IMG/VR virus record: IMGVR_UViG_3300025009_000058
Length of the DNA: 64,000 bases
Origin: a virus
Lineage: Duplodnaviria; Heunggongvirae; Uroviricota; Caudoviricetes
Reading direction: 5' to 3' (one strand)
The translations under genes were made by a program, and so were the position numbers. Of the stretch, positions 8,248-41,464 are shown piece after piece (position 1 is the first letter of the stretch; each line of letters opens with the position of its first letter). The notes under the pieces were generated by a model. That model was not told the origin of the DNA and ran no database searches. It saw nothing but the letters and a program-made list of their open reading frames with translations.

Positions 8248-8269
8248 TTGACAAAACAAATATAATACA
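8248..8269 (-). promoter_or_regulatory. Conserved promoter-like motif, copy (ttgacaaaacaaatataataca)
   Basis: 28 nt upstream of the 8220 start. Confidence 0.6.
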
Positions 8270-8274
8270 TCCGT

Positions 8275-8496
8275 TTATTTATATACTCTTTTCAACTCAA
8301 GATTAACAAATTTAATAAATGAATCAAAAGAGTCAAATCCTCTAATCTTTACTTCTTCAAGTAACTTATTTTGAAAACCATTCAAATAGTCTTCTCTCTC
8401 TGAAGTTGAAGCATAATATGATTTCTCTCTTGATGATAAAAAAGATTCAATTATATAGCCTAGAACAAAATGAGACAATAAATTTAAATTAATCAT
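8275..8496 (-). CDS. Hypothetical protein
   Basis: 73-aa ORF. Confidence 0.4.
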   Translation of the reverse strand: MINLNLLSHFVLGYIIESFLSSREKSYYASTSEREDYLNGFQNKLLEEVKIRGFDSFDSFIKFVNLELKRVYK

Positions 8497-8595
8497 CTGA
8501 ACTTCTCCTCAATTAATATTATTTTATAAAATTGATATTTCAAAATTAATATCTAAATTTTCTTTTGTCAACATTTATTTAACTTTTTATAATTT

Positions 8596-8620
8596 AATTA
8601 CCAAACATAAAAACATCTCT
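8596..8620 (-). promoter_or_regulatory. Degenerate copy of the promoter-like motif (taattaccaaacataaaaacatctc)
   Basis: Upstream of 8275..8496. Confidence 0.3.
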
Positions 8621-8635
8621 AATTTTAGATAATAT

Positions 8636-8720
8636 CATCAGCGAACCCATCGGACTTCGTCCTACCATCTTATATTATCCTGCCGGCTTCCTACTTCAGA
8701 GCCCTCTTATCTTTGAAACA
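8636..8720. repeat. Structured noncoding element A, with a partial repeat at about 10780-10860
   Basis: Shared blocks are atcagcga, a GGAC..GTCC hairpin, atcttatatt and ggcttc. Both copies sit just upstream of promoter-motif copies. Confidence 0.5.
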
Positions 8721-8774
8721 TAGAGGCTTACTTCTTATTAATAAGCTTTCTTATATCTACAAGTTCTTAGCTAT

Positions 8775-9197
8775 CTAATATGATTCACAATAAAATAATA
8801 TTGTTCTATCAACACCCGCTTCCGCAAATACATCATTCCATTGCTCATCATTCAATAAAGCCTTTATGAAAGCATCCCAAATCTTCTGATCTTCTGCATA
8901 TTCTTCTTTAATCAAAAGCCCGTGAGAGACAAAAGCTTCTTTAAAATGGAATGTAGCCGAGATTGAATAAGCACCGTGTAGCTCAACCCAAGTAAATAAT
9001 ATGACCATAGAGCCAATATGTTTTGATATTGCATTAATAGCATCTATCCTACGTTGTTCTCCATCTTTGTATTCTTCCCACTCAGGTCTTATACCAAAGT
9101 CTGGATTAGTATAATGAGCTTTAATAAATGTAGTACCAAGATCAACTCCGTCAGCATTAACATATACTTTTGCAATTACATCTTGTTTCATTTTCAA
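8775..9197 (-). CDS. Hypothetical protein
   Basis: 140-aa ORF. Confidence 0.5.
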   Translation of the reverse strand: MKMKQDVIAKVYVNADGVDLGTTFIKAHYTNPDFGIRPEWEEYKDGEQRRIDAINAISKHIGSMVILFTWVELHGAYSISATFHFKEAFVSHGLLIKEEYAEDQKIWDAFIKALLNDEQWNDVFAEAGVDRTILFYCESY

Positions 9198-9618: not shown

Positions 9619-10143
9619 TTAGTCTTCAATAATATAAAGGTTCATTTCATAATTTGGATTCAATTTTTTAATTTCTTCTTCAACCCTATTATGCCTTTCT
9701 TTATCCTTCTTTGATATTGTATATTTAAGCTTCAATGGGATGAATTTTGAAGAACGGATTGTTTGACTTGTATCATCAAGAGTTTTTAAATAATGATTTA
9801 TAACAATTTTTGAAATGAGGATTGGTTTTTGAGCAATTAGTGATTCAATTTTTTTATTAAAGAAGCCAAATTCCATACCATATTTGGTTATTAACTCAAC
9901 AAGGAGAGGATTGTTTTTGGCTGCAATAGCTTGATTCAATTCAAGAACAAAAGGCTTTACCCTATTTGATTCTTTATACATATTCAATAATTTTGTTCTT
10001 TGAGCATCTTTAATTTTTTGAGCTTCTTCCGCTTCAGTTAAGTATGTTTTTTGTTTAGGAAGGGTAGAACAAAAGCATTTTGTATTATGATGTACTTTTA
10101 TTCTTACCTGCTTCAAATTGATTGTATCAAAATATTGTTGCAT
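9619..10143 (-). CDS. Hypothetical protein
   Basis: Trimmed to the internal Met (MQQYFDT..). This Met has the strong RBS AAAGGAGG and leaves the promoter motif at 10179-10200 upstream of the gene. Confidence 0.5.
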   Translation of the reverse strand: MQQYFDTINLKQVRIKVHHNTKCFCSTLPKQKTYLTEAEEAQKIKDAQRTKLLNMYKESNRVKPFVLELNQAIAAKNNPLLVELITKYGMEFGFFNKKIESLIAQKPILISKIVINHYLKTLDDTSQTIRSSKFIPLKLKYTISKKDKERHNRVEEEIKKLNPNYEMNLYIIED

Positions 10144-10178: not shown

Positions 10179-10200
10179 TTGACAATTCAAAAATAAATAC
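10179..10200 (-). promoter_or_regulatory. Promoter-like motif copy (ttgacaattcaaaaataaatac)
   Basis: 36 nt upstream of the 10143 start. Confidence 0.45.
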
Positions 10201-10416
10201 TTTTATCAATATTATCAACCATTTTTTAACTTTATTAACATATATAACAGAGCAATCTAAGAGCACACCTCTGCCCCAAAAAGATTATTATAATTATCAG
10301 TTATGCCTGCTTGTCCAGACGTCTGAAAGTTATATAACTTTCTGGGACATTAGTGTATCATCCATATGGGTGAGATAGCTGACATCTTTGCCCAGATGAT
10401 AGCGCGCAATAAAATG

Positions 10417-10728
10417 TTACTGTATGGAGCTTATAATAAAAATATCTTCATTATTTTGAGAGATCCAAACCATTGTTTCATCATCAAATGTGATGTTAAA
10501 ATACTCTTTCAATCCTTCAACTTCTTGTTTGGACATTAGATTATCATAACCAGCATTAATAGATACCATATGTAGAGTTGTATTACCTGGATCATCCGTT
10601 AGCTGTGATAAATCATAATGAGTAAATTTTGCTTTAATATTAGGTTTTATAGTATGATAATATTCTTCAATAGCATCGGAGTAAAGATGTTTTTCTGCAT
10701 TAATTGTAAATGGCATCTGGTACCTCAA
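10417..10728 (-). CDS. Hypothetical protein
   Basis: 103 aa. SD GAGGT lies 8 nt before the ATG. Confidence 0.5.
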   Translation of the reverse strand: MRYQMPFTINAEKHLYSDAIEEYYHTIKPNIKAKFTHYDLSQLTDDPGNTTLHMVSINAGYDNLMSKQEVEGLKEYFNITFDDETMVWISQNNEDIFIISSIQ

Positions 10729-10741
10729 TTTTATTATTTAA

Positions 10742-10763
10742 TTGACAAAACAAATATAATACA
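10742..10763 (-). promoter_or_regulatory. Promoter-like motif copy (ttgacaaaacaaatataataca)
   Basis: 14 nt upstream of the 10728 start. Confidence 0.6.
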
Positions 10764-10769
10764 GCTATC

Positions 10770-15753: not shown

Positions 15754-16125
15754 TTATAATTTAATATCAAATTTACTTAACAGTGTTTCAAGATCTTTTG
15801 AATCGATCAAAGCCAATTGAATCTCTTCCATTATACTTTCATGATTAGTATTAATTTTCAAAGCTTCAATTCTTGCATCAATTAATTTATCTTTAACTGC
15901 AGATTCTTGAGTTGTTACAGAATAAGAAGATATATAGACATCTGCTTTAAAAGGTAGTTTATTCAATAAATCTTCTGCTCTCTTAATGATAGCTAAACAG
16001 TTACCCAAGGATAAATTGACTGATGCATCTTTTTCTAATCGTTTCTTTTCTTTTACAATCTGTAATATTCTAGCATTTTTAATCTTTGACGCAATTGCAG
16101 ATATTTGAGCTTTATTGAGTTTCAT
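15754..16125 (-). CDS. Hypothetical protein
   Basis: 123-aa ORF. Confidence 0.45.
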   Translation of the reverse strand: MKLNKAQISAIASKIKNARILQIVKEKKRLEKDASVNLSLGNCLAIIKRAEDLLNKLPFKADVYISSYSVTTQESAVKDKLIDARIEALKINTNHESIMEEIQLALIDSKDLETLLSKFDIKL

Positions 16126-16316
16126 ATGATTCCTCTTTTATCAATACAACAAAATTTATATTTCTTTCCACTACCACAAAAACAAAAGTCATTTCTACCA
16201 AGAGTCTTTTTAGCAGTAATAGTTTTTTGCTTAGATATTATATGATGATGGTTTTTTAGAACAAAGGTCTTTTCAAATGGATTAGATGCTTCAATAAAAT
16301 TTAACTTACTATCCAT
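16122..16316 (-). CDS. SEC-C metal-binding motif protein
   Basis: The C-terminal CFCGSGKKYKFCC matches the SecA/YecA-type SEC-C zinc motif. Confidence 0.5.
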   Translation of the reverse strand: MDSKLNFIEASNPFEKTFVLKNHHHIISKQKTITAKKTLGRNDFCFCGSGKKYKFCCIDKRGII

Positions 16317-16343
16317 ATCAAACCTTTTTCAATTTGTTTTTGA

Positions 16344-16365
16344 TTGACAAAACAAATATAATACA
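16344..16365 (-). promoter_or_regulatory. Promoter-like motif copy (ttgacaaaacaaatataataca)
   Basis: 28 nt upstream of the 16316 start. Confidence 0.6.
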
Positions 16366-16626
16366 TCATTCTGAATAAATAGCTTTTTGCATAGAATACT
16401 CTGTACCCCATTTCATATCGCGTCTTGAACCAGTCCATGCTCTTCGGCTTGATTTAATTTCCCACCCAGCAGTAGTTAACTCATTAAATCTTTTATTAGA
16501 TTCATAATTATTTTCTTGAACAAAAATTATTTTAGTTTCATACCCAGTAATAATTTTTTGTTTGGGAGCACAACCTATAAATGTTAGTAACAACCAAGTT
16601 ATTAAAAGCATTCTGTAAAATTTCAT
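16366..16626 (-). CDS. Predicted lipoprotein, o-spanin-like
   Basis: Signal peptide with lipobox MLLITWLLLTFIGC. It lies immediately downstream of a gene for an N-terminal-TM protein. Confidence 0.45.
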   Translation of the reverse strand: MKFYRMLLITWLLLTFIGCAPKQKIITGYETKIIFVQENNYESNKRFNELTTAGWEIKSSRRAWTGSRRDMKWGTEYSMQKAIYSE

Positions 16627-17023: not shown

Positions 17024-18061
17024 TTATTTATCAAACTTATATGGTGTTTTTGAAGTCTTGTCTAACTCAAAACAAATAGCTAAAGTCTTATATGTTTCAT
17101 CAAAGCTAATATTAGTAGGTTTTGCTGTACCAACCAATTTATATATTGGCTCAAATACATTCTTAGCTATTGTAAATTCAGACGGGGCTCCTTGCAGTCT
17201 GTGCGCTCTTTCAAGATAAGCTCTATCACCAACACAAGATATCTTTTTACCTGTTAATGATTTTTCTATCATAATACAAAACTTTAATAAATTATCATCT
17301 TCAACCACATTCTCAATGATGTATGTAATTCTTGAATCAGTATCATCAACATCATTAATAGCAGACAATTTACAATTCAAAAGACTTCTAAAATAGGAAC
17401 TGAATCTGATTCTTGGGATATGATTCCTTGAGCTATATAAACCACAGTAACGGTCATGTTTACTTAACTTGTTAACATCAATTACTTTAATTTTTGATTC
17501 TAGTTTTTTAAGAGCTTCTGCATGTTTCTTTGATTGAAGCGCAAAAAGCTCTGGATTATAATTCTCTTGAGTTATTGATTGATCTGCCACATTTGCAGCC
17601 TCAACAGGTATATTTTCATTTTCATTTTTATTTTCTTTTTTCCCTTTAAATACTAATCTTCTTAAGAAAATTTTAACATCATTAAAAGAGCTATATCTTT
17701 GAAGAAACAATAATTTAAATATAAATCTAGAAGATATTGTTATTGAGTTAATATTTGGATTAGCATCTACTACATCAAAATACTCAATGCAAGAAAAATA
17801 TTTATTAAAGAATGGTAAATTTCTTGGAAGGATATATTTATGATCAGAAGCATTATGTAATAAATAATAGCCTTGATCTTTAGTATGCTCAAGAAAAAAT
17901 TCAATTTTCAAGATTAACCTTCCCCAAGAGACTTTAAAATAAACTTCTGAGCCTTTCATTAAGTATAATCTGTTACCAATTAATAGATTATTTGGTAATG
18001 AAATTGACATTTGATCAGACCCTGAAGTTGCAAAATAGTCTGCTACTTTAATCTTCATCAT
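17024..18061 (-). CDS. Hypothetical protein
   Basis: 345-aa ORF with a promoter motif 20 nt upstream. Confidence 0.55.
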   Translation of the reverse strand: MMKIKVADYFATSGSDQMSISLPNNLLIGNRLYLMKGSEVYFKVSWGRLILKIEFFLEHTKDQGYYLLHNASDHKYILPRNLPFFNKYFSCIEYFDVVDANPNINSITISSRFIFKLLFLQRYSSFNDVKIFLRRLVFKGKKENKNENENIPVEAANVADQSITQENYNPELFALQSKKHAEALKKLESKIKVIDVNKLSKHDRYCGLYSSRNHIPRIRFSSYFRSLLNCKLSAINDVDDTDSRITYIIENVVEDDNLLKFCIMIEKSLTGKKISCVGDRAYLERAHRLQGAPSEFTIAKNVFEPIYKLVGTAKPTNISFDETYKTLAICFELDKTSKTPYKFDK

Positions 18062-18080: not shown

Positions 18081-18102
18081 TTGACAATACAAGTATAATA
18101 TC
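18081..18102 (-). promoter_or_regulatory. Promoter-like motif copy (ttgacaatacaagtataatatc)
   Basis: Upstream of 17024..18061. Confidence 0.5.
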
Positions 18103-18106
18103 TCTG

Positions 18107-19223: not shown

Positions 19224-19714
19224 TAGAAATGTACTAAAGTTTCAATAGATTTATCATCAACACAAGCTTTCATAATATTAAGAACCCATCCAGGAAAACC
19301 TTGAACATCATAAAAATCGTCTTCACCATTATAGGAAAATCCATGAGATGCATAAAGAGATATAATATCATGTTCATCTTTATTAGCTATTTCAATGCAT
19401 TTTTCAAGTGAAGTTTCTGTAAAGAAGATACCTTTTTGAATAGTATCAATATGCATAATTAATGATTCAGCATGGTAAATTTTCAAATCAAAATCTCTAT
19501 TAATCTTTTCTTCGATTAAACCCCAATGTTCATGCCTTAAATCTAGAGTCTTCATCATTTCATGAAATTTTGCTTCAAGAGTATTGAACGCTAAAAAATG
19601 TAGGTCCTTTTTAAAGTAAGAAAAATGTTTTGGGATAATTAAAGACTTAAGCATATTTGTTTCCTTTGAAAAATTATCCATATCAGTATAATGCTCAAAA
19701 TTATATTTTGTCAT
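19223..19714 (-). CDS. Hypothetical protein, tandem paralog A
   Basis: 163 aa. Its body is homologous to 19711..20142 (..KGIFFTE(T/A)SLE(K/Q)C..). The N-terminal 18-aa module is repeated upstream. Confidence 0.55.
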   Translation of the reverse strand: MTKYNFEHYTDMDNFSKETNMLKSLIIPKHFSYFKKDLHFLAFNTLEAKFHEMMKTLDLRHEHWGLIEEKINRDFDLKIYHAESLIMHIDTIQKGIFFTETSLEKCIEIANKDEHDIISLYASHGFSYNGEDDFYDVQGFPGWVLNIMKACVDDKSIETLVHF

Positions 19715-20142
19715 TGAAGATACACCGCAGTTTCAGTTGTTTCATCTTTTACACAAGCATCCATAATATCAAAAAGCATCCCAGGAAAACTTTGACCATA
19801 ATCAAAATCATCTCCACCATCATGAGATATATCATGCTTTGAATATAATTCCATAATTTTATCTTCACCGAGATTTGCTATCTTTAAACATTGCTCAAGT
19901 GAAGCCTCAGTAAAGAAAATTCCTTTTTGTTCAAGATCAATATGCATAATCAAGTTTTCAGCATGATAAATTTGTAAATCAAAATCTCCATTAATCAATT
20001 CTTCAACAGTATTATACCCATTAAGCTTCAAATGATCTCTGTTTTCTTTTGGCGCTTGAGCATTCAATGTATCAAATGCTAAATAATGTAAACCATCTTT
20101 GAAATGTGAAAGTGATTTAGGAATTATTAATTCTTTGGACAT
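19711..20142 (-). CDS. Hypothetical protein, tandem paralog B
   Basis: 143 aa with a promoter motif 27 nt upstream. Confidence 0.55.
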   Translation of the reverse strand: MSKELIIPKSLSHFKDGLHYLAFDTLNAQAPKENRDHLKLNGYNTVEELINGDFDLQIYHAENLIMHIDLEQKGIFFTEASLEQCLKIANLGEDKIMELYSKHDISHDGGDDFDYGQSFPGMLFDIMDACVKDETTETAVYLQ

Positions 20143-20168: not shown

Positions 20169-20190
20169 TTGACAAAACAAATATAATACA
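20169..20190 (-). promoter_or_regulatory. Promoter-like motif copy (ttgacaaaacaaatataataca)
   Basis: Upstream of 19711..20142. Confidence 0.6.
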
Positions 20191-20195
20191 TCTGA

Positions 20196-20423
20196 CTATT
20201 CAAGTGCAGTTTTTAGCTTAGTGAAGATTTTTTGATGCATAATATAAAGAGACATAGGTTTCACATCAAGAATTCTACTAATTTCTTTTATTGATAAACC
20301 ATCTCTATATTTGAGGATTAGTAGCGTACGTTCTCTTTCTGGTAATTTCTTTAATAATTCAAGAAGTTTTTGATTAGTTTCTTCTTGTTCAAATTGTTCC
20401 TGTATATCTATACAATTATCCAT
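20196..20423 (-). CDS. Sigma-70 region-4-like HTH protein (region 4 only)
   Basis: 75 aa. LPERERTLLILKYRDGLSIKEISRILDVKPMSLYIMHQKIFTKLK fits the sigma-70 region 4 / LuxR-type HTH pattern. Confidence 0.5.
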   Translation of the reverse strand: MDNCIDIQEQFEQEETNQKLLELLKKLPERERTLLILKYRDGLSIKEISRILDVKPMSLYIMHQKIFTKLKTALE

Positions 20424-21699: not shown

Positions 21700-21724
21700 T
21701 TTTAATTACAATACAAATTTAATA

Positions 21725-21916
21725 CTACTTAGTTCTTTTATATGACATACTTGTTAATTCAATTACAGTTGATACAACCCCTCGATATTTTTGTTTATCA
21801 AGACCATTAACTTCCATGAAAAAATCCACTGCTAGTTCATAAGAATCAGCATATACTCTCGTTATATACTTTTTGGGATCACAAGAATACCCTACAATAA
21901 ATAAATATTCTTTCAT
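21725..21916 (-). CDS. Hypothetical protein
   Basis: 63-aa ORF. Confidence 0.35.
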   Translation of the reverse strand: MKEYLFIVGYSCDPKKYITRVYADSYELAVDFFMEVNGLDKQKYRGVVSTVIELTSMSYKRTK

Positions 21917-23998: not shown

Positions 23999-24021
23999 AA
24001 AATCAAATTGTTTTAAATCAA
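23999..24021 (-). promoter_or_regulatory. Degenerate type-2 promoter-like motif (aataattcaaatataaagcttcg)
   Basis: Resembles the ..caaatataaagcttc variants at 36999 and 35954. Confidence 0.3.
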
Positions 24022-24025
24022 TAAT

Positions 24026-24253
24026 TCAAATATAAAGCTTCGTTCTCAATTTATGTAAAAATTTGCTGAAAATTGAGTATTTGATTTGATCATTCTTTAT
24101 ATCAACTAATATTGAAATTCTTTCTTCTAGAGAAAACATTTTATTATCCCTTGAAGTTCTTGGCATATTAATTTTGTCAAGCAGTGTATGACACTTATTA
24201 ATAGTCTCAACACTTTCTCTTAGCTTAAACTTTAATAACTCGTTCTGGTCCAT
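24026..24253 (-). CDS. Hypothetical protein
   Basis: 75-aa ORF. Confidence 0.4.
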   Translation of the reverse strand: MDQNELLKFKLRESVETINKCHTLLDKINMPRTSRDNKMFSLEERISILVDIKNDQIKYSIFSKFLHKLRTKLYI

Positions 24254-26547: not shown

Positions 26548-26569
26548 TTGATAAAACAAAATTAATACT
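26548..26569 (-). promoter_or_regulatory. Promoter-like motif copy (ttgataaaacaaaattaatact)
   Basis: 19 nt upstream of the 26529 start. Confidence 0.5.
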
Positions 26570-27062
26570 ACCTTGTCTTTAAATTCAAATCAATGGTATT
26601 AATAATTGAATTCTTTGGTATATAGAATCTAAATTCAGCATTACATAATGACTTAGCGTATGAGTCAGAAGAAAAATACTGTGATACAAAATTATTAATA
26701 TCAGTAATTTGAACATTGCCAGAAGATAAAGCCATATTCATTGATTTAGTGTTTAAGAAAACATACAAATGCAAATGCTCATTAGACTCTATTATGGTAA
26801 CAAATCTTGCAGGAATATTTAATGGATATATAATTCCATACCTTTCAACATAACAAGAATATATCATTTCTTGACCTGATTGAGATTGATATGAACCTAT
26901 ACCCAAAAAGAATTGACCTGATCCATTTCCATGTGTTTGAGATGATACTACTAACTGTTTTAAGTTAAAAGTGCCCATAGCTTGACTAATCCAAGGCTGG
27001 CTCTTAATTACAATTGAAGTAAAAAACAACATTAATGCAATTATTAGTGTCTTTTTGCACAT
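26568..27062 (-). CDS. Secreted protein (signal peptide)
   Basis: 164 aa, MCKKTLIIALMLFFTSIVIKSQPW. Confidence 0.5.
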   Translation of the reverse strand: MCKKTLIIALMLFFTSIVIKSQPWISQAMGTFNLKQLVVSSQTHGNGSGQFFLGIGSYQSQSGQEMIYSCYVERYGIIYPLNIPARFVTIIESNEHLHLYVFLNTKSMNMALSSGNVQITDINNFVSQYFSSDSYAKSLCNAEFRFYIPKNSIINTIDLNLKTR

Positions 27063-27082: not shown

Positions 27083-27104
27083 TTGATAAAACAAAATTAA
27101 TACT
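27083..27104 (-). promoter_or_regulatory. Promoter-like motif copy (ttgataaaacaaaattaatact)
   Basis: 21 nt upstream of the 27062 start. Confidence 0.5.
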
Positions 27105-27123
27105 ACAGCTGCTAAAACTTATC

Positions 27124-28014: not shown

Positions 28015-28037
28015 TTGGTAAAAACAAATATAAGGCT
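28015..28037 (-). promoter_or_regulatory. Promoter-like motif, type 2 (ttggtaaaaacaaatataaggct)
   Basis: Upstream of 27635..27988. Confidence 0.45.
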
Positions 28038-28130
28038 TTTAAAATAATAAACTTAACTTAATTCAATTTAACAGAACTGAATATACTGTAACTTAATTCA
28101 ATCGAATATAAAGTAAAAGACTTAAAAATC

Positions 28131-28168: not shown

Positions 28169-28300
28169 AATATAATTGAATCTAATAAACTGAAACTGAA
28201 CTAACCTGAATAAAGTGAAATTCAATTCAATAGAAGTTAATGCAATTCAATCTAATACAATTTAACTGAATCAATCTAGATATATTCAAATTTAATAATC

Positions 28301-28338
28301 AAATTTGAGGCCTCTAATCTAGTAGAGGCCTCAAACTT
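28301..28338. repeat. GC-clamped palindromic hairpin, copy 2
   Basis: aaatttgaggcctctaatctagtagaggcctcaaactt, with the same flanks (aatc aaatttgagg ... cctcaaacttaa) as copy 1, 170 bp away. Confidence 0.85.
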
Positions 28339-28413
28339 AACTTAATGAAATACAATCAAATCCACAGCAACTAAATATAGTAAAATAAAATGAAACCGAG
28401 CTTAATTGAATAA

Positions 28414-28998: not shown

Positions 28999-29533
28999 CT
29001 TTTCTTGGACGCATAGCCAACAATCCTACAAATTTACCGGCTTTATCAAGATATTCAATAACCTTTTCAGACCTATCAATCAAAATAGGATCAATAATTA
29101 TGATTCTTGCTTTTCCAGTCCATTCTGTAATAACTGGAAATTTCTTCCATACCCTTGAACTTCCGCCCTTTTTACCATCAGAAGGTACAAACATTGGTAG
29201 ATAACTTACTGCACTTTCATCAATACCCAATTGGATATTTTCAGGAATTGATATGCCAGCTTCAAAATGTTTTGTGTAAGTTGCTTTGCCTTTACCAGGA
29301 ACTGATTCTGATAAAAATCTTGCACATTCAACTAAAGTGTTACTAAGTGCTCTACCAGGAATGTAAACTTCTTTAGTTGTTGGATCAAAATGAAGTCTTT
29401 CTTTCCAAGTCTTGTCTTCAAATTTTTCATGAGCATCTCCAGCTTCTTTTTTGGAGATAATAGGCTTATTATACAAAATTGGACTTGCGCTTGTTAATTC
29501 AACTTCAAAGCATTTGATTGTTTCTTTTTTCAT
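28946..29533 (-). CDS. Hypothetical protein
   Basis: Trimmed to the internal Met (MKKETIKCFEV..), which leaves the motif at 29561-29582 28 nt upstream. Confidence 0.5.
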   Translation of the reverse strand: MKKETIKCFEVELTSASPILYNKPIISKKEAGDAHEKFEDKTWKERLHFDPTTKEVYIPGRALSNTLVECARFLSESVPGKGKATYTKHFEAGISIPENIQLGIDESAVSYLPMFVPSDGKKGGSSRVWKKFPVITEWTGKARIIIIDPILIDRSEKVIEYLDKAGKFVGLLAMRPRKGGEYGRFLVKSYKEVEL

Positions 29534-29560: not shown

Positions 29561-29582
29561 TTGATAAAAACAAATATAAGGC
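29561..29582 (-). promoter_or_regulatory. Promoter-like motif, type 2 (ttgataaaaacaaatataaggc)
   Basis: Upstream of 28946..29533. Confidence 0.5.
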
Positions 29583-29665
29583 TTCACTCATATTAAACCT
29601 CATAAATTTAATATGGCGAAGCCTTTGGATTAAGAAGGAAAAGAGTGCTTTCTCAAAAAACCTTC

Positions 29666-31364: not shown

Positions 31365-31382
31365 GTAAATCCTTTTTATTTG

Positions 31383-31456
31383 CGGAGGCGTTAGGACTCG
31401 AACCTAAATCCCATATCATTTCTGATACGATAATTACCATTATTACAACATCTCCG
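31383..31456 (-). tRNA. tRNA-like element, possibly a tRNA pseudogene or a noncanonical tRNA
   Basis: The minus-strand sequence folds with a canonical T-arm (TTAGG-TTCGAGT-CCTAA). It has a 7-8 bp acceptor stem (GGAGATG / CGCCTCC with one A-C mismatch), a D-arm with GG in the loop and a total length of 73 nt. The anticodon arm is TATC-AGAAAT-GATA, a 6-nt loop that lacks U33. No tRNA search program could be run. Confidence 0.4.
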
Positions 31457-31498: not shown

Positions 31499-32446
31499 TT
31501 ATTGATTAGGACCTAACAATGAGCCTGTTTGTACGGGTATTGGCCCATAATGATTTGCTGGGACATATCTTCCATCCCATCTTTTAATTTCTTCATATTT
31601 ATTTTGTAGCCGGATTTTTTCCAATTCATATTGCATAAATGAAGCAGTCAATATGTAGTACTTTTGTAGGCCTTCTCCTTCTTTGAACTTAGCCTTAGCA
31701 TTGATTTCTGCCGCAGCGAGATTTCCTTCCGCAATTAATACTTTCGCTGTCTTTTGAGCCTCTGCCTGTTTTACTTGCTTTTGAGCTTCTTGTTCTGCAA
31801 TCAATAATTCTTGTTGTTTTACTTTCACTTGTTGAGCTTCAGCCATAGTTCGTTCAATTTGCTTCTCAAATTGTTCTGACCAGTCGTAGTTAATGATTTT
31901 GAAATTATCTACCAAGACAGGATAGATTTTTAATTCCTGCTTTATAAGAGCTTCGACTTGACCAGCAATCATTTGCTGATTAGCTGCGACATCAAATATA
32001 GTATATTTACCAATAACTTGCTTAAATGCGGATTGAAGAGTTCGATAAACAATGCTCTTCATCTTGTCAACGCCCACTTTTTGCCACAGATAATGCAGTT
32101 TGTATTCATTGTTAGATATAAATAGTTTAGTACTCGCACCGACTGTTTGGTTATCTTTTGTAATAGCGCCTTCCGGACCTACAAGAACATCAACTTCTAT
32201 TTCTTCAGGCCGCACAGACAAAACTTCAACCGATTGAAAGAATGGCATAGTAAATTGAACGCCAGGATTAAGTGTACTTTGTTCAAGTTTACCCATGTTA
32301 AAACGCAAACCTCGAGAACCTTCTGGTATGATTGTAATAACCATCCAGAGAACGATTAAGATACCAAAGATACCTAAACCGATTTTCAATCCTTTGCTTG
32401 ATTTCAAAGTATTGAGTAATTGTTGCATTGGTGATTCGTAAGCCAT
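31499..32446 (-). CDS. SPFH / Band-7 (prohibitin/HflK-like) membrane protein
   Basis: 315 aa. It has an N-terminal TM segment (IGLGIFGILIVLWMVITII), an SPFH-like core (..VDVLVGPEGAITKDNQTV..) and a long Ala/Gln/Glu/Lys coiled-coil. Confidence 0.55.
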   Translation of the reverse strand: MAYESPMQQLLNTLKSSKGLKIGLGIFGILIVLWMVITIIPEGSRGLRFNMGKLEQSTLNPGVQFTMPFFQSVEVLSVRPEEIEVDVLVGPEGAITKDNQTVGASTKLFISNNEYKLHYLWQKVGVDKMKSIVYRTLQSAFKQVIGKYTIFDVAANQQMIAGQVEALIKQELKIYPVLVDNFKIINYDWSEQFEKQIERTMAEAQQVKVKQQELLIAEQEAQKQVKQAEAQKTAKVLIAEGNLAAAEINAKAKFKEGEGLQKYYILTASFMQYELEKIRLQNKYEEIKRWDGRYVPANHYGPIPVQTGSLLGPNQ

Positions 32447-32477: not shown

Positions 32478-32499
32478 TTGACAAAACAAATATATCTCT
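32478..32499 (-). promoter_or_regulatory. Promoter-like motif copy (ttgacaaaacaaatatatctct)
   Basis: 32 nt upstream of the 32446 start. Confidence 0.5.
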
Positions 32500-32598
32500 T
32501 CTAATAAAAATGCCTCTTAAGTTTTAAATGCTTCCAATTGTGGGGGGTCAATTGGACATATTAAAGACAAAAGAGGCAAACTTTATTTAATCAAAAAA

Positions 32599-32620
32599 GT
32601 ACAAAACAAAAATAATACAT
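32599..32620 (-). promoter_or_regulatory. Degenerate promoter-like motif (gtacaaaacaaaaataatacat)
   Basis: Lacks the TTGACA end. It lies just downstream of the thyX stop. Confidence 0.3.
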
Positions 32621-32628
32621 CAGTGATT

Positions 32629-33534
32629 CTATTTTTTATTTAATTTACTGAAAGGTGAGGAAATGCCTAGTAATTTCAACTTAGATTCAAACTCATCTAA
32701 TTCTCTTGAAACCTTAATATAAGAATTATCAACATACGACAACCAACCAAATTCTGTGGCCAATTCAAAAATATCTTTTGGAGTATATTTCTCAGCAATG
32801 ATCATTTGTATTAAGTTATAGTCTTTCTGGAAAAGTTTTAAAGAATATAACTCATACTCTTCAAATGCAGACCATGATATTGGGAACTCTTCTTTAACAA
32901 ATTCTGCAATAGCCAAAGCATACTGATGGATCTCATATTGTGCATGCGAGTCCAATCGAAGTCTTAAAAAGTTAAATAAGTTATGCAAATCAATCTTCCA
33001 ATAAGCTTCTGTATAAGTTGATAATGGAAGATCTTTTCTTGCTTGTTCTTTTGCAACTCCAGCTTCAATTCGTTCATTATATATTCTTGTAGCGATAGCT
33101 TGAAAATTTTTCTCATCTTTTGAAAGATTATGGGCTAATATAGGGTTTATATCTTCAAGTTTTCCAGCAGAACCTTGTTTATTGTCTTGAGCTTGTACTC
33201 TCCACTGATTTTGTGCAGTTTCTTGTTTCTCATCAATTGCTAATGAATATCTGGTTGAATATTCATTTACATTTGCAGTTCTATGTCTAATCCATTGACG
33301 CCAACAATCCATAGGAACTTTAACATGAAATTTCATTTCAACCATTTCAAATGGTGATGTGTGCCCATGTCTATAAAGATATTTTATTAAACCTTTGTCT
33401 TCAGAGACTTTTTTAGTACCAGCACCATATGAAACTCTTGCTGCTTGAACAATTGAGTCATCAGAGCCCATTACATCAACAAGGCGTACAAATCCCTTAT
33501 CTAAAACATTAATTTTTCTACTCCACTGTTCCAT
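32629..33534 (-). CDS. thyX: Flavin-dependent thymidylate synthase ThyX
   Basis: The ThyX signature RHRTANVNEYSTRY (RHR-x7-S) is present, along with HGHTSPFEMV and an N-terminal VLDKGFVRLVDVMGSD. Confidence 0.85.
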   Translation of the reverse strand: MEQWSRKINVLDKGFVRLVDVMGSDDSIVQAARVSYGAGTKKVSEDKGLIKYLYRHGHTSPFEMVEMKFHVKVPMDCWRQWIRHRTANVNEYSTRYSLAIDEKQETAQNQWRVQAQDNKQGSAGKLEDINPILAHNLSKDEKNFQAIATRIYNERIEAGVAKEQARKDLPLSTYTEAYWKIDLHNLFNFLRLRLDSHAQYEIHQYALAIAEFVKEEFPISWSAFEEYELYSLKLFQKDYNLIQMIIAEKYTPKDIFELATEFGWLSYVDNSYIKVSRELDEFESKLKLLGISSPFSKLNKK

Positions 33535-35490: not shown

Positions 35491-35910
35491 TTAATTTGCT
35501 ACAACTTCTGTAGGGATAATAAGAGAAATTGCTTTTGCATTTTCAACAATCTCATCTTTAAATGAGCCACCAGATGTTTCAATTTTTCTCTTGCATTGAC
35601 GAAGTTTTTCTCTACCTGAACTTGTATGGGGAAGAGAAAAGGTATCAAGTAGATCTTTAATTTTGTGGGGCTTTCCATCAGAAACAATTTCAAAGAATTT
35701 TTCAAAGATTGAATCGCCTTTTGAAGCTTTCTGCGTCTTTAAATCAGCAGGAGCAGTTTCAACTTGTTTCAATGATTTAACAGCTGATTTTGTTTGTTCA
35801 ACTGGAACAACAGTCTCTGTTTTTTCAATTTGCGTAGATTCAACTGGAGCATCAGCCTTTTGTTTAACTGTTTCTCCATTGCTTAACCTTAAACCTGATA
35901 ATTTTGCCAT
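35491..35910 (-). CDS. Basic DNA-binding-like protein (MAKLSGL.. family)
   Basis: 139 aa. It shares the MAKL(A/S)GL start and a K-rich character with 36497..36943. RBS GGGAGG. Confidence 0.5.
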   Translation of the reverse strand: MAKLSGLRLSNGETVKQKADAPVESTQIEKTETVVPVEQTKSAVKSLKQVETAPADLKTQKASKGDSIFEKFFEIVSDGKPHKIKDLLDTFSLPHTSSGREKLRQCKRKIETSGGSFKDEIVENAKAISLIIPTEVVAN

Positions 35911-35953: not shown

Positions 35954-35975
35954 TTGACAAAACAAATATAATGCT
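35954..35975 (-). promoter_or_regulatory. Promoter-like motif copy (ttgacaaaacaaatataatgct)
   Basis: 44 nt upstream of the 35910 start. Confidence 0.5.
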
Positions 35976-35980
35976 TCTTG

Positions 35981-36496: not shown

Positions 36497-36943
36497 TTAT
36501 GCAACCGGTAATTTGTAGACTTTTTTGTTTGAACCTTGAGTCTGAGTCTTTGTGCAATGAAGCTGATCTCTCAACATTCCGCGAACTTTTCGATCAAATT
36601 TTTCTGCTTTCAATTGTTCAATTGGCGTTGAGCTAATTGATTTCAAAATTTCTTCAGTTCCGAGACCGTCAGGATTTTTTGTAAGAACGTCCTTCAATGC
36701 ATTTAACAATGCTTCGTCTGCTGCTGCTTGTTCCGGAGATTTTGTACGAGGTTTAAGATTTGCAAGTCGCATTGCCTTGAGTTCTTCTTCAGTTTTCTTC
36801 GGCTTGTCTTCTTTAACCTTTTTTTCTTTCTTTGGTTTTGTTTCTACTGCGGCTGCTGCTGCATCTTGTGAGGCAACTTGACCAGCTGCTGCATCCGTTG
36901 CAACTGCAGCGTCTTTTGCTTTTAATCCTGCTAATTTTGCCAT
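36497..36943 (-). CDS. Histone-H1-like Ala/Lys/Pro-rich basic protein
   Basis: 148 aa with a low-complexity AAAA/KPKKEKK N-terminus. Its 5' UTR (catttgtttggctccttttagt) is near-identical to that of 41145..41402. Confidence 0.55.
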   Translation of the reverse strand: MAKLAGLKAKDAAVATDAAAGQVASQDAAAAAVETKPKKEKKVKEDKPKKTEEELKAMRLANLKPRTKSPEQAAADEALLNALKDVLTKNPDGLGTEEILKSISSTPIEQLKAEKFDRKVRGMLRDQLHCTKTQTQGSNKKVYKLPVA

Positions 36944-36998
36944 TTGTTTGGCTCCTTTTAGTTATTAATTGATTTTTTATTTCTCATTGAAATAAAAA

Positions 36999-37019
36999 TT
37001 TGATAAACAAATATAAAGC
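36999..37019 (-). promoter_or_regulatory. Promoter-like motif, type 2 (ttgataaacaaatataaagct)
   Basis: Upstream of 36497..36943. Confidence 0.45.
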
Positions 37020-37043
37020 TTCTTTCTATTCTGTTCTGCAAAA

Positions 37044-37421
37044 TTAATCTTTATCTCTTAACAAGCTGTGAGTATCAAGAAATTCATTTAATGAAAAAGT
37101 ACCTTTTTTATGTTCAACAAACATTGCCCAATATGTTAAAAAGTCTATATCGGGCCTTTGGTTTTTTGAGTCAAAGATTACATTACTAGTACTCCTAAAA
37201 CAAATTTGGAATTCTTTAAATTTTTTCAAGCATTCTGCAGTATTTATAACTAAGCCATTTTCAAGATTTATAAATTTAAAATAAGGAAAAGTTTCACCAA
37301 CAAGATAATTCTCAATTGAATCTTCTTTTCCCTCAGGTAAACCAATAAAATAAGATGGTGCTAAATCTTTAACTTTTGAAATCTCAATATTATCCTCAGT
37401 AAAAACAAGAAATTTAGTCAT
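37044..37421 (-). CDS. Hypothetical protein
   Basis: Trimmed to the internal Met (MTKFLVF..). This Met has RBS AGAGGA and an ATGA overlap with the upstream small ORF. Confidence 0.5.
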   Translation of the reverse strand: MTKFLVFTEDNIEISKVKDLAPSYFIGLPEGKEDSIENYLVGETFPYFKFINLENGLVINTAECLKKFKEFQICFRSTSNVIFDSKNQRPDIDFLTYWAMFVEHKKGTFSLNEFLDTHSLLRDKD

Positions 37422-37574: not shown

Positions 37575-37596
37575 ATTGAATTACAAATATAATATC
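37575..37596 (-). promoter_or_regulatory. Promoter-like motif copy (ttgaattacaaatataatatct)
   Basis: Upstream of the small peptide gene at 37418..37549. Confidence 0.45.
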
Positions 37597-37678
37597 TCTT
37601 TGATACTTGAAAATATTATATTTTGCTCAATTAATATGTGAGATATAGTTATTTGGATTTTTAAACTATACGTGAAGG

Positions 37679-38394: not shown

Positions 38395-38486
38395 TTCACC
38401 AATAGTTCTTTATATCTTGACCGAAGAAATGAAATTCTTTATCTGTATTTAATGACTTATCAAGACCTATATAAAGTATTTTCATT

Positions 38487-39896
38487 TTATCCTCTTCCAG
38501 TTTTTATACAATCTGGTCTAAATCTTTTAAAAATAGGAAATCTTAATGAATGCGTACCTTGTTTGTTAATAGTAATTTCTTGAGAAACTACTTCTATAAA
38601 TTGACCTATTAATTCATCTTTTCTTTTCCAAAAATCATTTCTTTCTTTATCTTCAAACCCTCCTCCACACTTACCAGATATTTTTACTGTTTTCTCTTCA
38701 ATAGCAATATCTTCATCGACTAGTGGTATTTCAGCTTCATAGGTAAACCCACCTAATCTATCTTCATTTTTAGTACCTTTTTCACCTAAATAAGCATCTA
38801 AAATCTTAACAATATATTCACTTTCATTTGTGTTGCCCATTACTTCATCATAGTCTTGAATTTTGAACTTCCACCAAGTTGCTTGTTTTCCTCCTCTCTT
38901 TGAACCCGCTGAATACATGTACATTGAGTTTGAGTCTTTACAAATGACTCCCTCCTCCCCAACTTCACCTTTCCAATATTCAAAAGACTTAATTACATCA
39001 TCCATGCTGTTAACTTCACCATATGGAAGTGTAACTAAGTGAGGTGCCATTAAAGGTTCTCCATCATCAAATAAGAATTCATTGAGTCTATTTTTTCTAT
39101 CTTTTAATTTATGGGTACATTTTTCTTCTAAAAACTCTTCTAAAGGAAGAATGTCCCATAATTTGAATACTGCCTCATCACATTGTACATCATGAATACG
39201 TCTTGCATTATTCATAATACCATTAAATGTTTTATCTTGAATCTCACCATCTAAAACAACTCCATTTTTATAAAACTCTTTTTCTCTGTCATAAAATGAT
39301 TCCCATAAAGTTCTAGTTTCTTGTTCAATTACTTTGAAATTTGTATATGGAATTCCGCTTCTAGCTTTGATTTCAATGTTTCCATCTGGATTAATGAATA
39401 TGAGAGCCCTTACCCCATCAATTTTTGGTTCAATCAAAAGAGGGAATTTAGGTTTTACTTTCTTGAACCTCTCACATAAACCTAATTTAAATTCAGGAAT
39501 CCAATCAGGCCAAATATCATTTATAAGACCAATTCCTACACCAATTTTAAGATCTTTCTTTAGGATTTTTTCAAGATATGGTCTAAACTCAAAAGGTAAT
39601 CCAGTATAAATATTTTCCACATGTTCTCTAGCTTGATTACCTGTTATGACTCTGTCATGTAGTGGTTGCAATTGATCCATTAAGTCATCTACAGTGTACA
39701 GTAACTTACAAGCATTAATTTCACTAATTAATACTACTTTTGCTACATAAAACTTAATATATGGATCATATGCAAAACGAAAAATCAATTTAAGATCTTC
39801 ATCATTTTTATAAAGATTTATTAAATCTTTCTTTGCATTTGTTGATGATATCTTTGAAAGATCATCAAAGACTAATCCAATTGTTTTTAAATCCAT
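38487..39896 (-). CDS. ATP-dependent DNA ligase
   Basis: 469 aa. It has the adenylation motif I KIDGVRALIF (KxDG) and a nucleotidyltransferase-plus-OB-fold layout. Confidence 0.8.
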   Translation of the reverse strand: MDLKTIGLVFDDLSKISSTNAKKDLINLYKNDEDLKLIFRFAYDPYIKFYVAKVVLISEINACKLLYTVDDLMDQLQPLHDRVITGNQAREHVENIYTGLPFEFRPYLEKILKKDLKIGVGIGLINDIWPDWIPEFKLGLCERFKKVKPKFPLLIEPKIDGVRALIFINPDGNIEIKARSGIPYTNFKVIEQETRTLWESFYDREKEFYKNGVVLDGEIQDKTFNGIMNNARRIHDVQCDEAVFKLWDILPLEEFLEEKCTHKLKDRKNRLNEFLFDDGEPLMAPHLVTLPYGEVNSMDDVIKSFEYWKGEVGEEGVICKDSNSMYMYSAGSKRGGKQATWWKFKIQDYDEVMGNTNESEYIVKILDAYLGEKGTKNEDRLGGFTYEAEIPLVDEDIAIEEKTVKISGKCGGGFEDKERNDFWKRKDELIGQFIEVVSQEITINKQGTHSLRFPIFKRFRPDCIKTGRG

Positions 39897-40451
39897 TTAG
39901 ACTCCTATTTTAGAAGATAAAACTTCTATTGATTTGTTGAATCTATTTAAATGTTGTTTAACTAATTCTTTTTGATTATAAGCTTCTTGAGCTTTTTCAA
40001 TCTTTAGTCTAAGATCTAATTTTTTTAATAAAAAGCTAATTATTTGTTCTACAAATAAAGCTGTCTTATTAATATCAACATTATAATATTTATTTGGGAT
40101 TTTTCTTTCACCCGAATCTTTATTAATGTACTCAAATAGTTCTCTGGAGCCTTCTAAATTGATATTAAATTCAAACTTAGGCACACATATACCCATACCA
40201 TCATCAGTTTTATTGTCAGTATAGATAGTCCACGAAAAAATTTCTACTCCTTTATAGAAAATATTATACTCACCAATATTCTCTGATATCCATTCTAATT
40301 TGATTATATAATTATCATTATGTGGACCATAAGATATATTCTTTTTATAATCATCAATCAATAAGCCTAAATTAAAATTAAGCTTACAAAAATCAGGGTA
40401 CCTTTGATTAAATAATCTAGAAATAGGATTATCCAGTTTAAAAGGGTTCAT
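39897..40451 (-). CDS. Hypothetical protein
   Basis: 184-aa ORF. Confidence 0.5.
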   Translation of the reverse strand: MNPFKLDNPISRLFNQRYPDFCKLNFNLGLLIDDYKKNISYGPHNDNYIIKLEWISENIGEYNIFYKGVEIFSWTIYTDNKTDDGMGICVPKFEFNINLEGSRELFEYINKDSGERKIPNKYYNVDINKTALFVEQIISFLLKKLDLRLKIEKAQEAYNQKELVKQHLNRFNKSIEVLSSKIGV

Positions 40452-40753
40452 TTTTGTCTCATATCTGTGACAGCTATTGATATTGATCCATTAGATGAAT
40501 TAGCAATTACATATATAATTTTTCCAGTTTGAAAATCCATTACACGATATAATTCATCATTAAACTTGCCCGTATTAATTATATGTGTATTTGTAATAGA
40601 TGCAGAAGTATTATGATACCATTCTCTATATTGAAATGTAGTACCAAAGAAAGAAAAGATAACAATAATTATAAATACAATTATTGCAATTTCCATAAAT
40701 ATTTGTTTTCTAGTTTTCATATATTTTCTCTTTAGGACATTTATAAAAATCAA
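40448..40753 (-). CDS. Small TM protein
   Basis: 101 aa with the TM segment EIAIIVFIIIVIFSFFGTTF. Confidence 0.45.
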   Translation of the reverse strand: MIFINVLKRKYMKTRKQIFMEIAIIVFIIIVIFSFFGTTFQYREWYHNTSASITNTHIINTGKFNDELYRVMDFQTGKIIYVIANSSNGSISIAVTDMRQK

Positions 40754-41042
40754 ATTTAGTTTTCAACTTTTCTACATTACGTAGAATGAAATTCTTAGCA
40801 TCAATACTACTATTAAAAGATATTTTAAGAGTTATATTCCTCTTAGTTATATTTTCATCCTTTACATAGAAATGTATCTTATGCATACCATCATCAGGAT
40901 GAGATCTAGCAAAAGTTCTTTGTACTTGTATATACCCTATCTTCAGTCCACCTAATTTAATATCATGAGTCTCAGGTTCAAATGATTTCCATCTACCTAT
41001 ATGTTTAATTTTTTTAAAAGAGAAATTTTCTTTTTTTGCCAT
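40710..41042 (-). CDS. Hypothetical protein
   Basis: 110-aa ORF. Confidence 0.45.
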   Translation of the reverse strand: MAKKENFSFKKIKHIGRWKSFEPETHDIKLGGLKIGYIQVQRTFARSHPDDGMHKIHFYVKDENITKRNITLKISFNSSIDAKNFILRNVEKLKTKFDFYKCPKEKIYEN

Positions 41043-41144
41043 ATCAATTATTTATTTTTATTCAACAAATATAATTCATCATTAATACAGAAATGCCAGA
41101 AAATAAATTCTGGCATTTCTAGACTAAGAATATTTAGAAGAATA

Positions 41145-41402
41145 TTAAGCTTGAGGTGCAGATGCAATTGTTTCGCGTTTCTCTCTTAAAGCAGCTCTAA
41201 GTTCCTTCATGAATTTGGTCATTGCAGAACTGCCAGTATTTACTCTTTTGCCTGGAGCTTTCATACCCTTATCAAAAAAGCGAATAATATCTGTTTTCAA
41301 CTGTTCAGTAATTTCATCTAATTTACCACAAAGCAATTCACCTTGTGTTGGATCTACTACTGCAGTTTCTGTTGCAACGGATTCTGTTTTTACTTCTGCC
41401 AT
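41145..41402 (-). CDS. Small basic protein (paralogous 5' UTR to 36497..36943)
   Basis: 85 aa with RBS AAGGAG. It is the first gene of the minus-strand arm. Confidence 0.5.
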   Translation of the reverse strand: MAEVKTESVATETAVVDPTQGELLCGKLDEITEQLKTDIIRFFDKGMKAPGKRVNTGSSAMTKFMKELRAALREKRETIASAPQA

Positions 41403-41440
41403 TTGTTTGGCTCCTTTTAGTGGTTGAAATTAATTTATTA

Positions 41441-41464
41441 TTTGAGACAACAAATATATTACAT
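41441..41464 (-). promoter_or_regulatory. Promoter-like motif copy (ttgagacaacaaatatattacatc)
   Basis: 39 nt upstream of the 41402 start. Confidence 0.45.

Follow-up and report, generated by a model that had tools for sequence, protein, structure and literature searches.

A short sequence element that recurs before genes over much of a phage genome is very likely a promoter, and there is about an even chance that the promoter class it would define depends on a sigma factor encoded by the same phage. The phage, of the class Caudoviricetes, is represented by a stretch of 64,000 nucleotides (IMG/VR record IMGVR_UViG_3300025009_000058), the whole of which is here called the window, and the 24-base consensus of the element, read on the transcribed strand, is GAWG-N2-TTATATTTG-TTTT-RTCAAT. 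The candidate reader, sigma219, is a protein of 219 amino acids. Promoter function, with a predicted start of transcription at the R of RTCAAT, is proposed because of the placement and orientation of the copies, their footprint in related phages, the invariance of two bases, A-11 and T-7, and one orphan copy (at 32598) that is followed by a candidate hairpin RNA instead of a gene.

The window is part of a metagenomic contig of 121,179 bp (ENA ERZ27254811 k141_110238, in which window position x is record position 117816 - x) that has also been assembled in JGI and Logan data, and that at NCBI is filed in a mis-binned 'Nanoarchaeia' metagenome-assembled genome. On microdiversity comparison the assemblies of this phage are essentially identical. 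Its G+C content (GC) is about 29%, and the analysis read 86.7 kb of the approximately 121 kb.

Abundance and anatomy of the element

An earlier note on this DNA described a promoter-like element present at least 17 times upstream of minus-strand genes and once in reverse orientation, a count that has turned out slightly conservative. When the motif was rebuilt in gene orientation and a position weight matrix (PWM) was iterated over the window and 12.8 kb of its flanks (76.8 kb in total), 23 sites scored at or above the cut-off of 14 bits as against none in 10 shuffles, the top shuffle score being 13.8. Twenty of them are in the window, 19 on the minus strand (8248-41465) and one on the plus strand (52361-52384), and three more are on the plus strand just past the window's end. 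The plus-strand string TTGACAAAACAAATATAA by itself has 8 copies with up to two mismatches where 0.06 are expected, and 18 with up to three where 2.2 are expected. The orientation of the site is that of the local genes in all 23 cases (P = 1e-7), and at least 21 of the 23 are intergenic though non-coding DNA makes up 10.6% of the sequence (binomial P = 6e-19). From the end of the core to the start codon there are 14-60 nt at 20 of the 23, close to the 14-56 nt given before, and these start codons carry a Shine-Dalgarno (SD) sequence; the exceptions are the copies at 24018 (110 nt), 37575 (153 nt) and 32598, after which there is no open reading frame (ORF).

In the layout deduced here, G-19 A-18 W-17 G-16 would be followed by two free bases, then by (T)-13 T-12 A-11 W W T-8 T-7 T-6 G-5, then by four bases, and finally by R+1 and TCAAT. 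No columns of the motif are stronger than G-19 and G-16. Two flank variants had been described, and both are present, as GATGTA and GAAGCN on the transcribed strand; they have in common a conserved G at two positions, which had gone unmentioned. The claim that the element does not fit sigma-70 has to be reversed, as it came from the non-transcribed orientation: the transcribed strand has a -10-type hexamer (TATATT/TAWWTT), then TTG and a purine at the expected +1. TAWWTT has the TAnnnT pattern, with A-11 and T-7, of a canonical sigma-70/sigma-A -10 element, and the motif looks like a -10 promoter of the sigma-70-family kind lacking a -35 element, not like something foreign to sigma-type recognition. 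TTGACA matched at four or more of its six positions, 16-18 nt upstream, is found at 4 of the 23 sites with 3.5 expected, and the Bacteroidota -33 TTTG at 19-21 nt is found at one with 0.6 expected, both of which are background levels. There is no TG at -15/-14, the conserved G being at -16 and not at -14.

Other assignments of the pattern were tried and rejected. The -24/-12 promoters of sigma-54 have invariant GG and GC 10 nt apart; the G-to-G spacing of the motif (11 nt) would suit them, yet its dinucleotides at those places are WG and GT, with an invariant TA in between, and no sigma-54-like gene is present. An archaeal B recognition element (BRE) and TATA box would start transcription about 26 nt on, and this would hit or pass the SD of the copies that are 14-20 nt from their ATG; an archaeal virus is also countered by the bacterial-type replication genes DnaB, DnaG, PolA and RecA. 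GAWG as a by-product of overlapping stop codons holds for a few copies only.

Conservation in related phages

Relatives were reached through the DNA ligase (L267, L269, L270 and L271; 41-50% identical, GC 25-38%), and about 20 kb of each was fetched; JGI Ga0378408_0000274 (117 kb) and Ga0366824_1000598 are contigs of relatives. GAWG-N2-WTAWWTTT stands before genes in all four, at roughly 5-20 times the expectation from dinucleotide shuffles. The site of the Hc1-like gene is kept at the orthologous position in four of five phages with flanks that cannot be aligned, and an internal site after the helicase gene (47634..47658) is retained in all seven loci examined, the orthologues named being those of L267, L270, L271, L275 and L276. 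In a more distant locus, L272, the GAWG form was not seen, among the few intergenic regions there from which a motif might be defined.

Over 45 aligned sites the conserved positions are only G-19, A-18, G-16, T-12, A-11, TTT and G/A-5. A-11 and T-7 are essentially invariant, and a purine lies four bases after G-5. Between 7 and 50 nt upstream of the TTATATTTG core, at about -20 to -63, the alignment is devoid of information. The earlier note's nearly invariant core therefore needs to be redrawn: across the relatives the part that stands is GAWG-N2-WTAWWTTTR, and the TTTTGTCAA tail is conserved only within this phage.

The motif appears to be specific to these phages. None of 266 fetched loci, apart from those of this phage itself, has more than two PWM matches. 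Exact 18-mer scans of viral, metagenome and genome collections gave, among the matches listed, single occurrences that are mostly chance, and the 18-mer shows no association with GAWG in 256 occurrences elsewhere, again among the matches listed. Neither the motif strings nor the sample accessions turned up in the literature searched. Of the matches listed the sole informative one is in an unrelated phage contig, L004 (IMGVR_UViG_3300014204_000402, 8320-8520; GC about 40%), where 33 of 35 bases (94%) are those of the copy at 16344 (stretch 16343-16376), with a perfect TTGACA upstream at 17 nt, though that contig has no protein homology to the window. The likeness may reflect transfer of a promoter between phages. 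The promoter block of L004 is followed by a GC-rich leader of about 140 nt with long-range complementarity between GGGGTGGA and TCCACCCC.

The orphan copy, GATGTATTATTTTTGTTTTGTACT (32598..32621, minus strand, 27.0 bits), has a distinct bearing on function. From its predicted +1 a candidate small RNA of about 100 nt (32496..32602, minus strand) would fold into a long hairpin (-30.1 kcal/mol, z = -5.9) with a U-run at its end, right before the next motif copy. Rfam has no match in the window.

It is improbable, given these patterns, that the element has a role other than that of a promoter, for example as a site of RNA processing or stability, a translational operator in the 5′ leader or a binding site for a repressor. 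Its constant location in short leaders before start codons, and the conservation within this phage of RTCAAT, which would be transcribed, speak for such a role. However, RNA structure is lacking at the sites (mean z = -0.5). The distance to the start codon is anything between 14 and 153 nt, a non-coding hairpin RNA lies behind one copy, and canonical -35 hexamers occur joined to the element at 17 nt. In the relatives it is the upstream, DNA-like -10 pattern that is conserved, not the portion closest to the ribosome site. The promoter-like character first ascribed to the element is borne out by its position, its orientation, its phylogenetic footprint and the lack of RNA structure.

The two sigma-related proteins

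The earlier note pointed to a sigma-70-family factor and to a protein consisting of region 4 only, with a helix-turn-helix (HTH), and both are as described, though for the former an analysis at family level was needed. The gene for sigma219 (45057..45716, plus strand) lies between those for DnaB and a DEAD/ResIII helicase, an order kept in all seven related loci. On its own the protein scores 20.9 bits against Pfam Sigma70_r2, below the gathering threshold of 24, has no match to Pfam region 4 and has no word-sharing relatives. An exhaustive HMMER search gave a family of 21 representatives; 17 of 23 family members match Sigma70_r2, with a best E = 3.3e-8, and the family alignment has the region 2.1-2.4 pattern D-x-x-Q/A...G...KA...Y/F...W-I-x-x-x-V-K/R-Q and a C-terminal HTH. 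When the family profile is compared with solved structures, sigma-H (3mzy) is matched over residues 47-209 with E = 3.6e-6, and SigK, FliA, WhiG and SigI are matched also. The AlphaFold model (predicted local distance difference test, pLDDT, 83) has a sigma-2 domain, a disordered linker and a sigma-4 domain with four C-terminal helices at residues 135-198, and its top 50 Foldseek matches in the PDB are all sigma factors, with E values of 3e-3 or worse and probabilities up to 1.0. By profile and model, then, sigma219 is a genuine but very divergent member of the sigma-70 family, predicted to bind core polymerase and to confer promoter specificity.

Its kinship with the regulators of known phages is remote. 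Homology to those of SPO1 was rejected, as hhalign gave probabilities of 0.7% for gp28, 1.3% for gp34 and at most 1.3% for gp33. T4 gp55 has rank 35 among the fold matches, a likeness at the level of the generic sigma-2 fold only, and tblastn found no match to sigma219 in 50,697 phage records.

The other protein, of 75 amino acids (20196..20423, minus strand), is a standalone sigma region 4 (Pfam Sigma70_r4_2, E = 6.7e-12). It was not found in the fetched parts, about 20 kb each, of the relatives. A split sigma, in which the region-2 half would come from the ORF that precedes the region-4 gene, was considered and found no support.

Which sigma factor reads the element

The most likely reader of the motif would be host core RNA polymerase with sigma219. 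Domain 2 of a sigma-70-family protein would melt and capture TAWWTT by way of A-11 and T-7, and the binding energy that otherwise comes from a -35 contact would be supplied by the upstream G-19 and G-16 and by the TTG after the hexamer. The sigma operon has a promoter variant with no G-16 and could be started by host holoenzyme, making a cascade of the SPO1 gp28 type. Several observations favor the phage sigma. As the sites have neither a -35 element nor a TGn, the canonical host holoenzyme should not use them; G-19 and G-16 are in no host consensus found and are unlinked to the same 18-mer elsewhere; and wherever a relative retains the motif, the sigma gene is retained with it.

Weighing against the phage sigma as reader are a number of considerations. 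The start site and the promoter activity are themselves read from the DNA, and the pairing of sigma with motif has behind it their joint presence in a single phage lineage, where shared ancestry is a confounder. The sigma219 model has a region-4 HTH, yet the promoters offer it no -35 to read. Phage sigmas in known phages usually serve late structural genes, and the structural genes seen here are without the motif. The conclusions rest on 86.7 kb of the genome. Variants of the motif precede the sigma operon in the window and in L267, L270, L271 and L276, which means that whatever transcribes the genome as infection begins has to recognise a closely similar sequence. The variant in the window, GATTGTTTAATTTTG-TCAC-ATCAAT (42368..42392, plus strand), ends 19 nt before the first gene of the sigma-containing operon and has T, not G, at -16, and GATT in place of GATG is found before the sigma operon of L267 and L276 also. 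Further, L004 and the window each have the motif's -10/+1 block downstream of a perfect TTGACA, at a spacing of 17 nt; in the window the variant promoter TTGACA-N17-TAATTTTG-N4-ATCAAT (8531..8571, minus strand) has the -10 and +1 blocks of the motif and a canonical -35 instead of GAWG. With this block and the variant at the sigma operon, a role for the host sigma is kept open. Finally, the -10 block is the same as the Bacteroidota housekeeping -7 box, TAnnTTTG (PMC6847099, PMC9723704).

The host primary sigma might indeed read the motif alone, as a Bacteroidota-like '-7 box' or an extended -10 type of promoter, with the phage sigma serving another class such as late genes. This is unlikely, but the host sigma, alone or with a phage activator, is the main rival. 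T-12 A-11 T-8 T-7 T-6 G-5, with variable -10/-9 and a purine four nt on, constitutes the Bacteroidota sigma-A -7 element (PMC6847099, PMC9723704). The motif or a variant of it is on nearly every non-structural unit, including the sigma operon and dozens of small early-looking ORFs, and an early class of its own cannot be made out. It is missing from the visible structural genes, and the -10/+1 block is joined to a canonical -35 in the window and in L004. But Bacteroidota mRNAs are without SD (PMC6847099), and here a core SD (GGAG/GAGG/AGGA) stands before the start codon of 76 of 136 genes where 8.5 are expected. The background levels of -33 TTTG and of -35, the lack of TG at -15/-14, and G-19 and G-16 with their isolation from host consensus sequences tell against it as well.

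Distinctly unlikely is a shared arrangement in which host sigma-A reads the -10 and a phage co-factor, bound at GAWG or remodelling region 4, stands in for the -35 contact, as in the sigma appropriation of T4 MotA/AsiA. The 75-amino-acid region-4 protein or another small phage protein might be that co-factor. That GAWG and a canonical -35 appear as alternative upstream modules on the same -10/+1 block, that the phage encodes a standalone region-4 HTH protein and that it is specifically G-16 that is missing in the sigma-operon variants are all consistent with it. GAWG, however, is 4 bp long and 3 bp from the hexamer, very close to the place of sigma domain 2/3, where a second, HTH-bearing protein could hardly be fitted in. 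The region-4 protein did not turn up in the roughly 20 kb fetched of each relative that has the motif. Nor was any MotA- or AsiA-like protein recognised.

It is very improbable that the motif serves as promoter for an RNA polymerase of the phage's own, whether single-subunit or non-canonical multisubunit, encoded in the 34 kb outside the sequence read. In the best copies about 24 contiguous bases are nearly invariant, as with T7-type promoters, and the sequence read is 86.7 kb of about 121 kb. The earlier note saw no single-subunit RNA polymerase gene in the window, which was correct, and none of any kind was recognised within the 86.7 kb. The remaining stretch is flanked on both ends by structural genes on the same strand (portal and a 1484-amino-acid tail-like protein), and the relatives conserve only the sigma-type -10 pattern, A-11/T-7, and two G residues. 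Dependence on sigma219 stays the preferred reading.

Individual copies and the genes behind them

The copies in the minus-strand arm are described in order of position, and all are on that strand. The first, GATGTATTATATTTGTTTTGTCAA (8248..8271; 39.1 bits), is 27 nt before a gene for 114 amino acids (7876-8220). A degenerate copy, AAGTATTTATTTTTGAATTGTCAA (10179..10202; 21.4 bits), is 35 nt before gene 9619-10143, and GCTGTATTATATTTGTTTTGTCAA (10742..10765; 37.3 bits) is 25 nt before gene 10417-10716. The copy shared with L004 (16344..16367; 39.7 bits) is 27 nt before gene 16122-16316, and the stop codon of the gene upstream overlaps its GATG. GAGATATTATACTTGTATTGTCAA (18081..18104; 32.3 bits) is 19 nt before a gene for 345 amino acids (17024-18061). 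The top-scoring copy (20169..20192; 40.9 bits) is 9 nt after the region-4 gene and 26 nt before gene 19711-20142, and GTAGTATTAAATTTGTATTGTAAT (21705..21728; 25.9 bits) is 17 nt before gene 21274-21687. The copy that begins GAAGCTTTATATTTG (24018..24041; 23.0 bits) is followed by its 110-nt leader and gene 23683-23907. The leader (23905-24022) has a GC-rich hairpin, AGGGG...CCCCCU, just before the ribosome-binding site, and with z = -1.6 it is mildly better than shuffles.

GTAGTATTAATTTTGTTTTATCAA (26548..26571; 30.9 bits) is 18 nt before gene 25864-26529, and a copy of the same sequence (27083..27106; 28.4 bits) is 20 nt before gene 26568-27062. AAAGCCTTATATTTGTTTTTACCA (28016..28039; 24.0 bits) is 27 nt before gene 27635-27988, GAAGCCTTATATTTGTTTTTATCA (29562..29585; 25.1 bits) is 28 nt before the start that gives gene 28946-29533 a product of 195 amino acids, and GAAGAGATATATTTGTTTTGTCAA (32478..32501; 29.8 bits), which the candidate small RNA adjoins, is 31 nt before the Band_7 gene (31499-32446). 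Further on, GAAGCATTATATTTGTTTTGTCAA (35954..35977; 36.6 bits) is 43 nt before gene 35491-35910, GAAGCTTTATATTTGTTTATCAAA (36999..37022; 24.9 bits) is 55 nt before gene 36497-36943, and the weak copy GAGATATTATATTTGTAATTCAAT (37575..37598; 20.5 bits) is 153 nt before gene 37044-37421. GATGAATTATATTTGTTGAATAAA (41057..41080; 26.6 bits) is preceded by a terminator-like hairpin and is 14 nt before gene 40710-41042. The last of them, GATGTAATATATTTGTTGTCTCAA (41442..41465; 31.1 bits), is 39 nt before the Hc1-like gene (41145-41402), and the orthologous promoter is present in L269, L270 and L271. An identical 5′ leader and start, ACTAAAAGGAGCCAAACAAATGGCA, is shared by gene 36497-36943 and the Hc1-like gene (36944-36968 and 41403-41427), both of which are behind motif copies.

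On the plus arm, GCTGAATTATATTTGTTTTGTAAA (52361..52384; 30.2 bits) is 17 nt before a dNMP-kinase-like gene (52402-52908), and the copies beyond the window, in extended coordinates, are at 64512-64535, 68806-68829 and 71103-71126, the first of them being 29 nt before the gene for DNA polymerase I (PolA). The internal site after the helicase gene is a weak copy, GATATATTATATTTGTAAAT (47634..47658, plus strand), before gene 47672-48154.

The genes that bear the motif are thus dozens of small ORFs and those for the Hc1 histone-like protein, the Band_7 protein, the dNMP kinase and DNA polymerase I, and methylase, glycosyltransferase and primase genes are reached from motif copies via read-through. 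No copy of the motif precedes the visible structural genes, either in the portal arm (portal being just past the window's start) or in the arm with the 1484-amino-acid tail-like protein (at about 80 kb), and therefore the motif marks the non-structural part of the genome, that is replication, nucleotide metabolism and the small ORFs.

Other features of the genome

The phage has no close isolate relative by megablast and tblastn against 50,697 isolate phages, in which sigma and portal had no match at all, and the best isolate matches of its helicase and PolA are in Bacillus SPO1-like phages at about 24-27% identity. A bona fide ThyX is encoded (185 bits), and next to the dNMP-kinase-like gene there is a ThyA-like protein that is very divergent (40 bits, the cut-off being 108); two ThyA-family genes are present in the relatives also. 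A dCMP deaminase, a dUTPase_2-like protein, three DNA methyltransferases and two large glycosyltransferases, one of them fused to a methyltransferase, are encoded as well, and the nucleotide and modification genes are in 32629-33534, 49650-50300, 51463-52908, 53516-61203 and 63016-63474. The set suggests that the DNA of the phage may contain hypermodified bases.

Several non-coding features may have regulatory or replicative relevance. Two adjacent tandem arrays at 5766-5848, ATTGGATG repeated 3.6 times and TGGCTAATCAGCTTTAG repeated 3.4 times (100% identical), are in a divergent gap of 546 nt that separates the structural arm from a small cluster of plus-strand genes; they are iteron-like and could be an origin, a packaging site or the control region of a late promoter. 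In a repeat-rich gap of 425 nt there is a palindrome of about 46 nt, AAATTTGAGGCCTCTA-N6-TAGAGGCCTCAAACTT, in two copies 170 nt apart (28122-28343), which could be an operator, an origin or a strong hairpin pair. At 41700-41765, within a gap of 548 nt that has no ORFs, a promoter-like site, TTGACT-N18-TATAAC, has some 20 nt downstream of it a hairpin, AACAAGTCAAAA/TTTTGACTTTTT, that carries a T-run; a very small transcript or a terminator may lie there. A bidirectional terminator-like hairpin, AACTCCAGG...CCTGGAGTT (L274:17900-18010, about 80.1 kb in window coordinates), closes the plus arm, and past it are convergent minus-strand genes that include the one for the 1484-amino-acid protein; this has no family or PDB match and looks like a tail component.

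The window's only tRNA-like feature (31382-31455) was called by ARAGORN with a four-base 'gaaa' anticodon and no definite identity. At the 3′ end of ORF 6839-7357 a 12-nt coding repeat, AAACCAAAGCCA, is present 5.8 times (7281-7353) and would encode a Lys/Pro-rich repeat tail. Two independent assemblies (L028 and the ERZ contig) end within about 20 bp of each other at about -3340, inside the structural arm, which suggests a real genome terminus or a repeat boundary.

Comparison with known systems

A motif repeated before co-oriented genes and distinct from the consensus of the host is one mark of a promoter class that belongs to a phage sigma, and this is what was found. In the SPO1 cascade a small phage sigma, gp28, redirects host core RNA polymerase to middle promoters (PMC13401047). 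The present phage is alike in these points: both are large, the replication module here is distantly similar to that of Herelleviridae, many copies of a phage-specific promoter stand before replication and nucleotide-metabolism genes, redirection by a sigma is proposed here too, and a histone-like protein and a divergent ThyA-like enzyme are likewise in both. Yet sigma219 has no specific sequence similarity to gp28, gp34 or gp33. SPO1 middle promoters are also bipartite, with a -35 and a -10, and the motif here has no -35.

The late promoters of T4 have no -35 element either. They consist of TATAAATA at -13 to -6, are short, conserved, AT-rich and -10-only, and are read by gp55 (PMC1524935). 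The motif here is also short, highly conserved, AT-rich and -10-only, and the reader proposed for it is also a phage sigma. The two differ in sequence, G-19, G-16 and the TTG after the hexamer having no counterpart in T4; in the factor, as gp55 is without region 4 and needs gp33 and the sliding clamp whereas a sigma-4 domain is part of sigma219 and clamp genes did not turn up in the sequence read; and in the genes served, which in T4 are structural and here, among those visible, are not.

The Bacteroidota sigma-A consensus, -33 TTTG / -7 TAnnTTTG (PMC6847099, PMC9723704), is that of a group that may not include the host of this phage. T-12 A-11 H H T-8 T-7 T-6 G-5 and the spacing to the purine at the start are identical in the two, and in both the upstream element is weak or absent, but SD is strong here and absent there, GAWG at -19 to -16 is outside that consensus and the promoter at 8531-8571 has a TTGACA -35. 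The SD usage and the examples of a canonical -35 argue against a Bacteroidota host. The combination of a Bacteroidota-type -7 box with strong SD may help to narrow down what the host is. With extended -10 promoters (TGn) there is a likeness in independence of a -35 and in conserved bases just upstream of the hexamer that compensate for it, but the G residues are at -16 and -19 instead of the T-15/G-14 of that class, and the TGnTAnnnT register never fits the family-wide alignment.

If the pairing of sigma219 with the motif is true, it would define a new family of sigma factors whose compact promoter can do without a -35, and would offer a ready-made orthogonal sigma/promoter pair for which five phages supply about 45 natural versions of the promoter. 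The case would gain in interest if GAWG replaces the -35 contact in a new way. The fullest version of the picture, in which a previously unrecognised family of two-domain sigmas reads a -35-less promoter, GAWG and the TTG discriminator stand in for the -35 contact, a Bacteroidota-like -7 box goes together with strong SD and the DNA is perhaps hypermodified, is a tentative and rather doubtful one. At another level the copies provide a transcription map for a phage lineage of about 121 kb that has no cultured relative, with promoters, a candidate small RNA and a boundary with a motif-free late region. Judged by sequence, what is new is the motif itself and the sigma family, and the kind of system to which they would belong is a familiar one, its closest analogues being SPO1 gp28 and the late promoters of T4.

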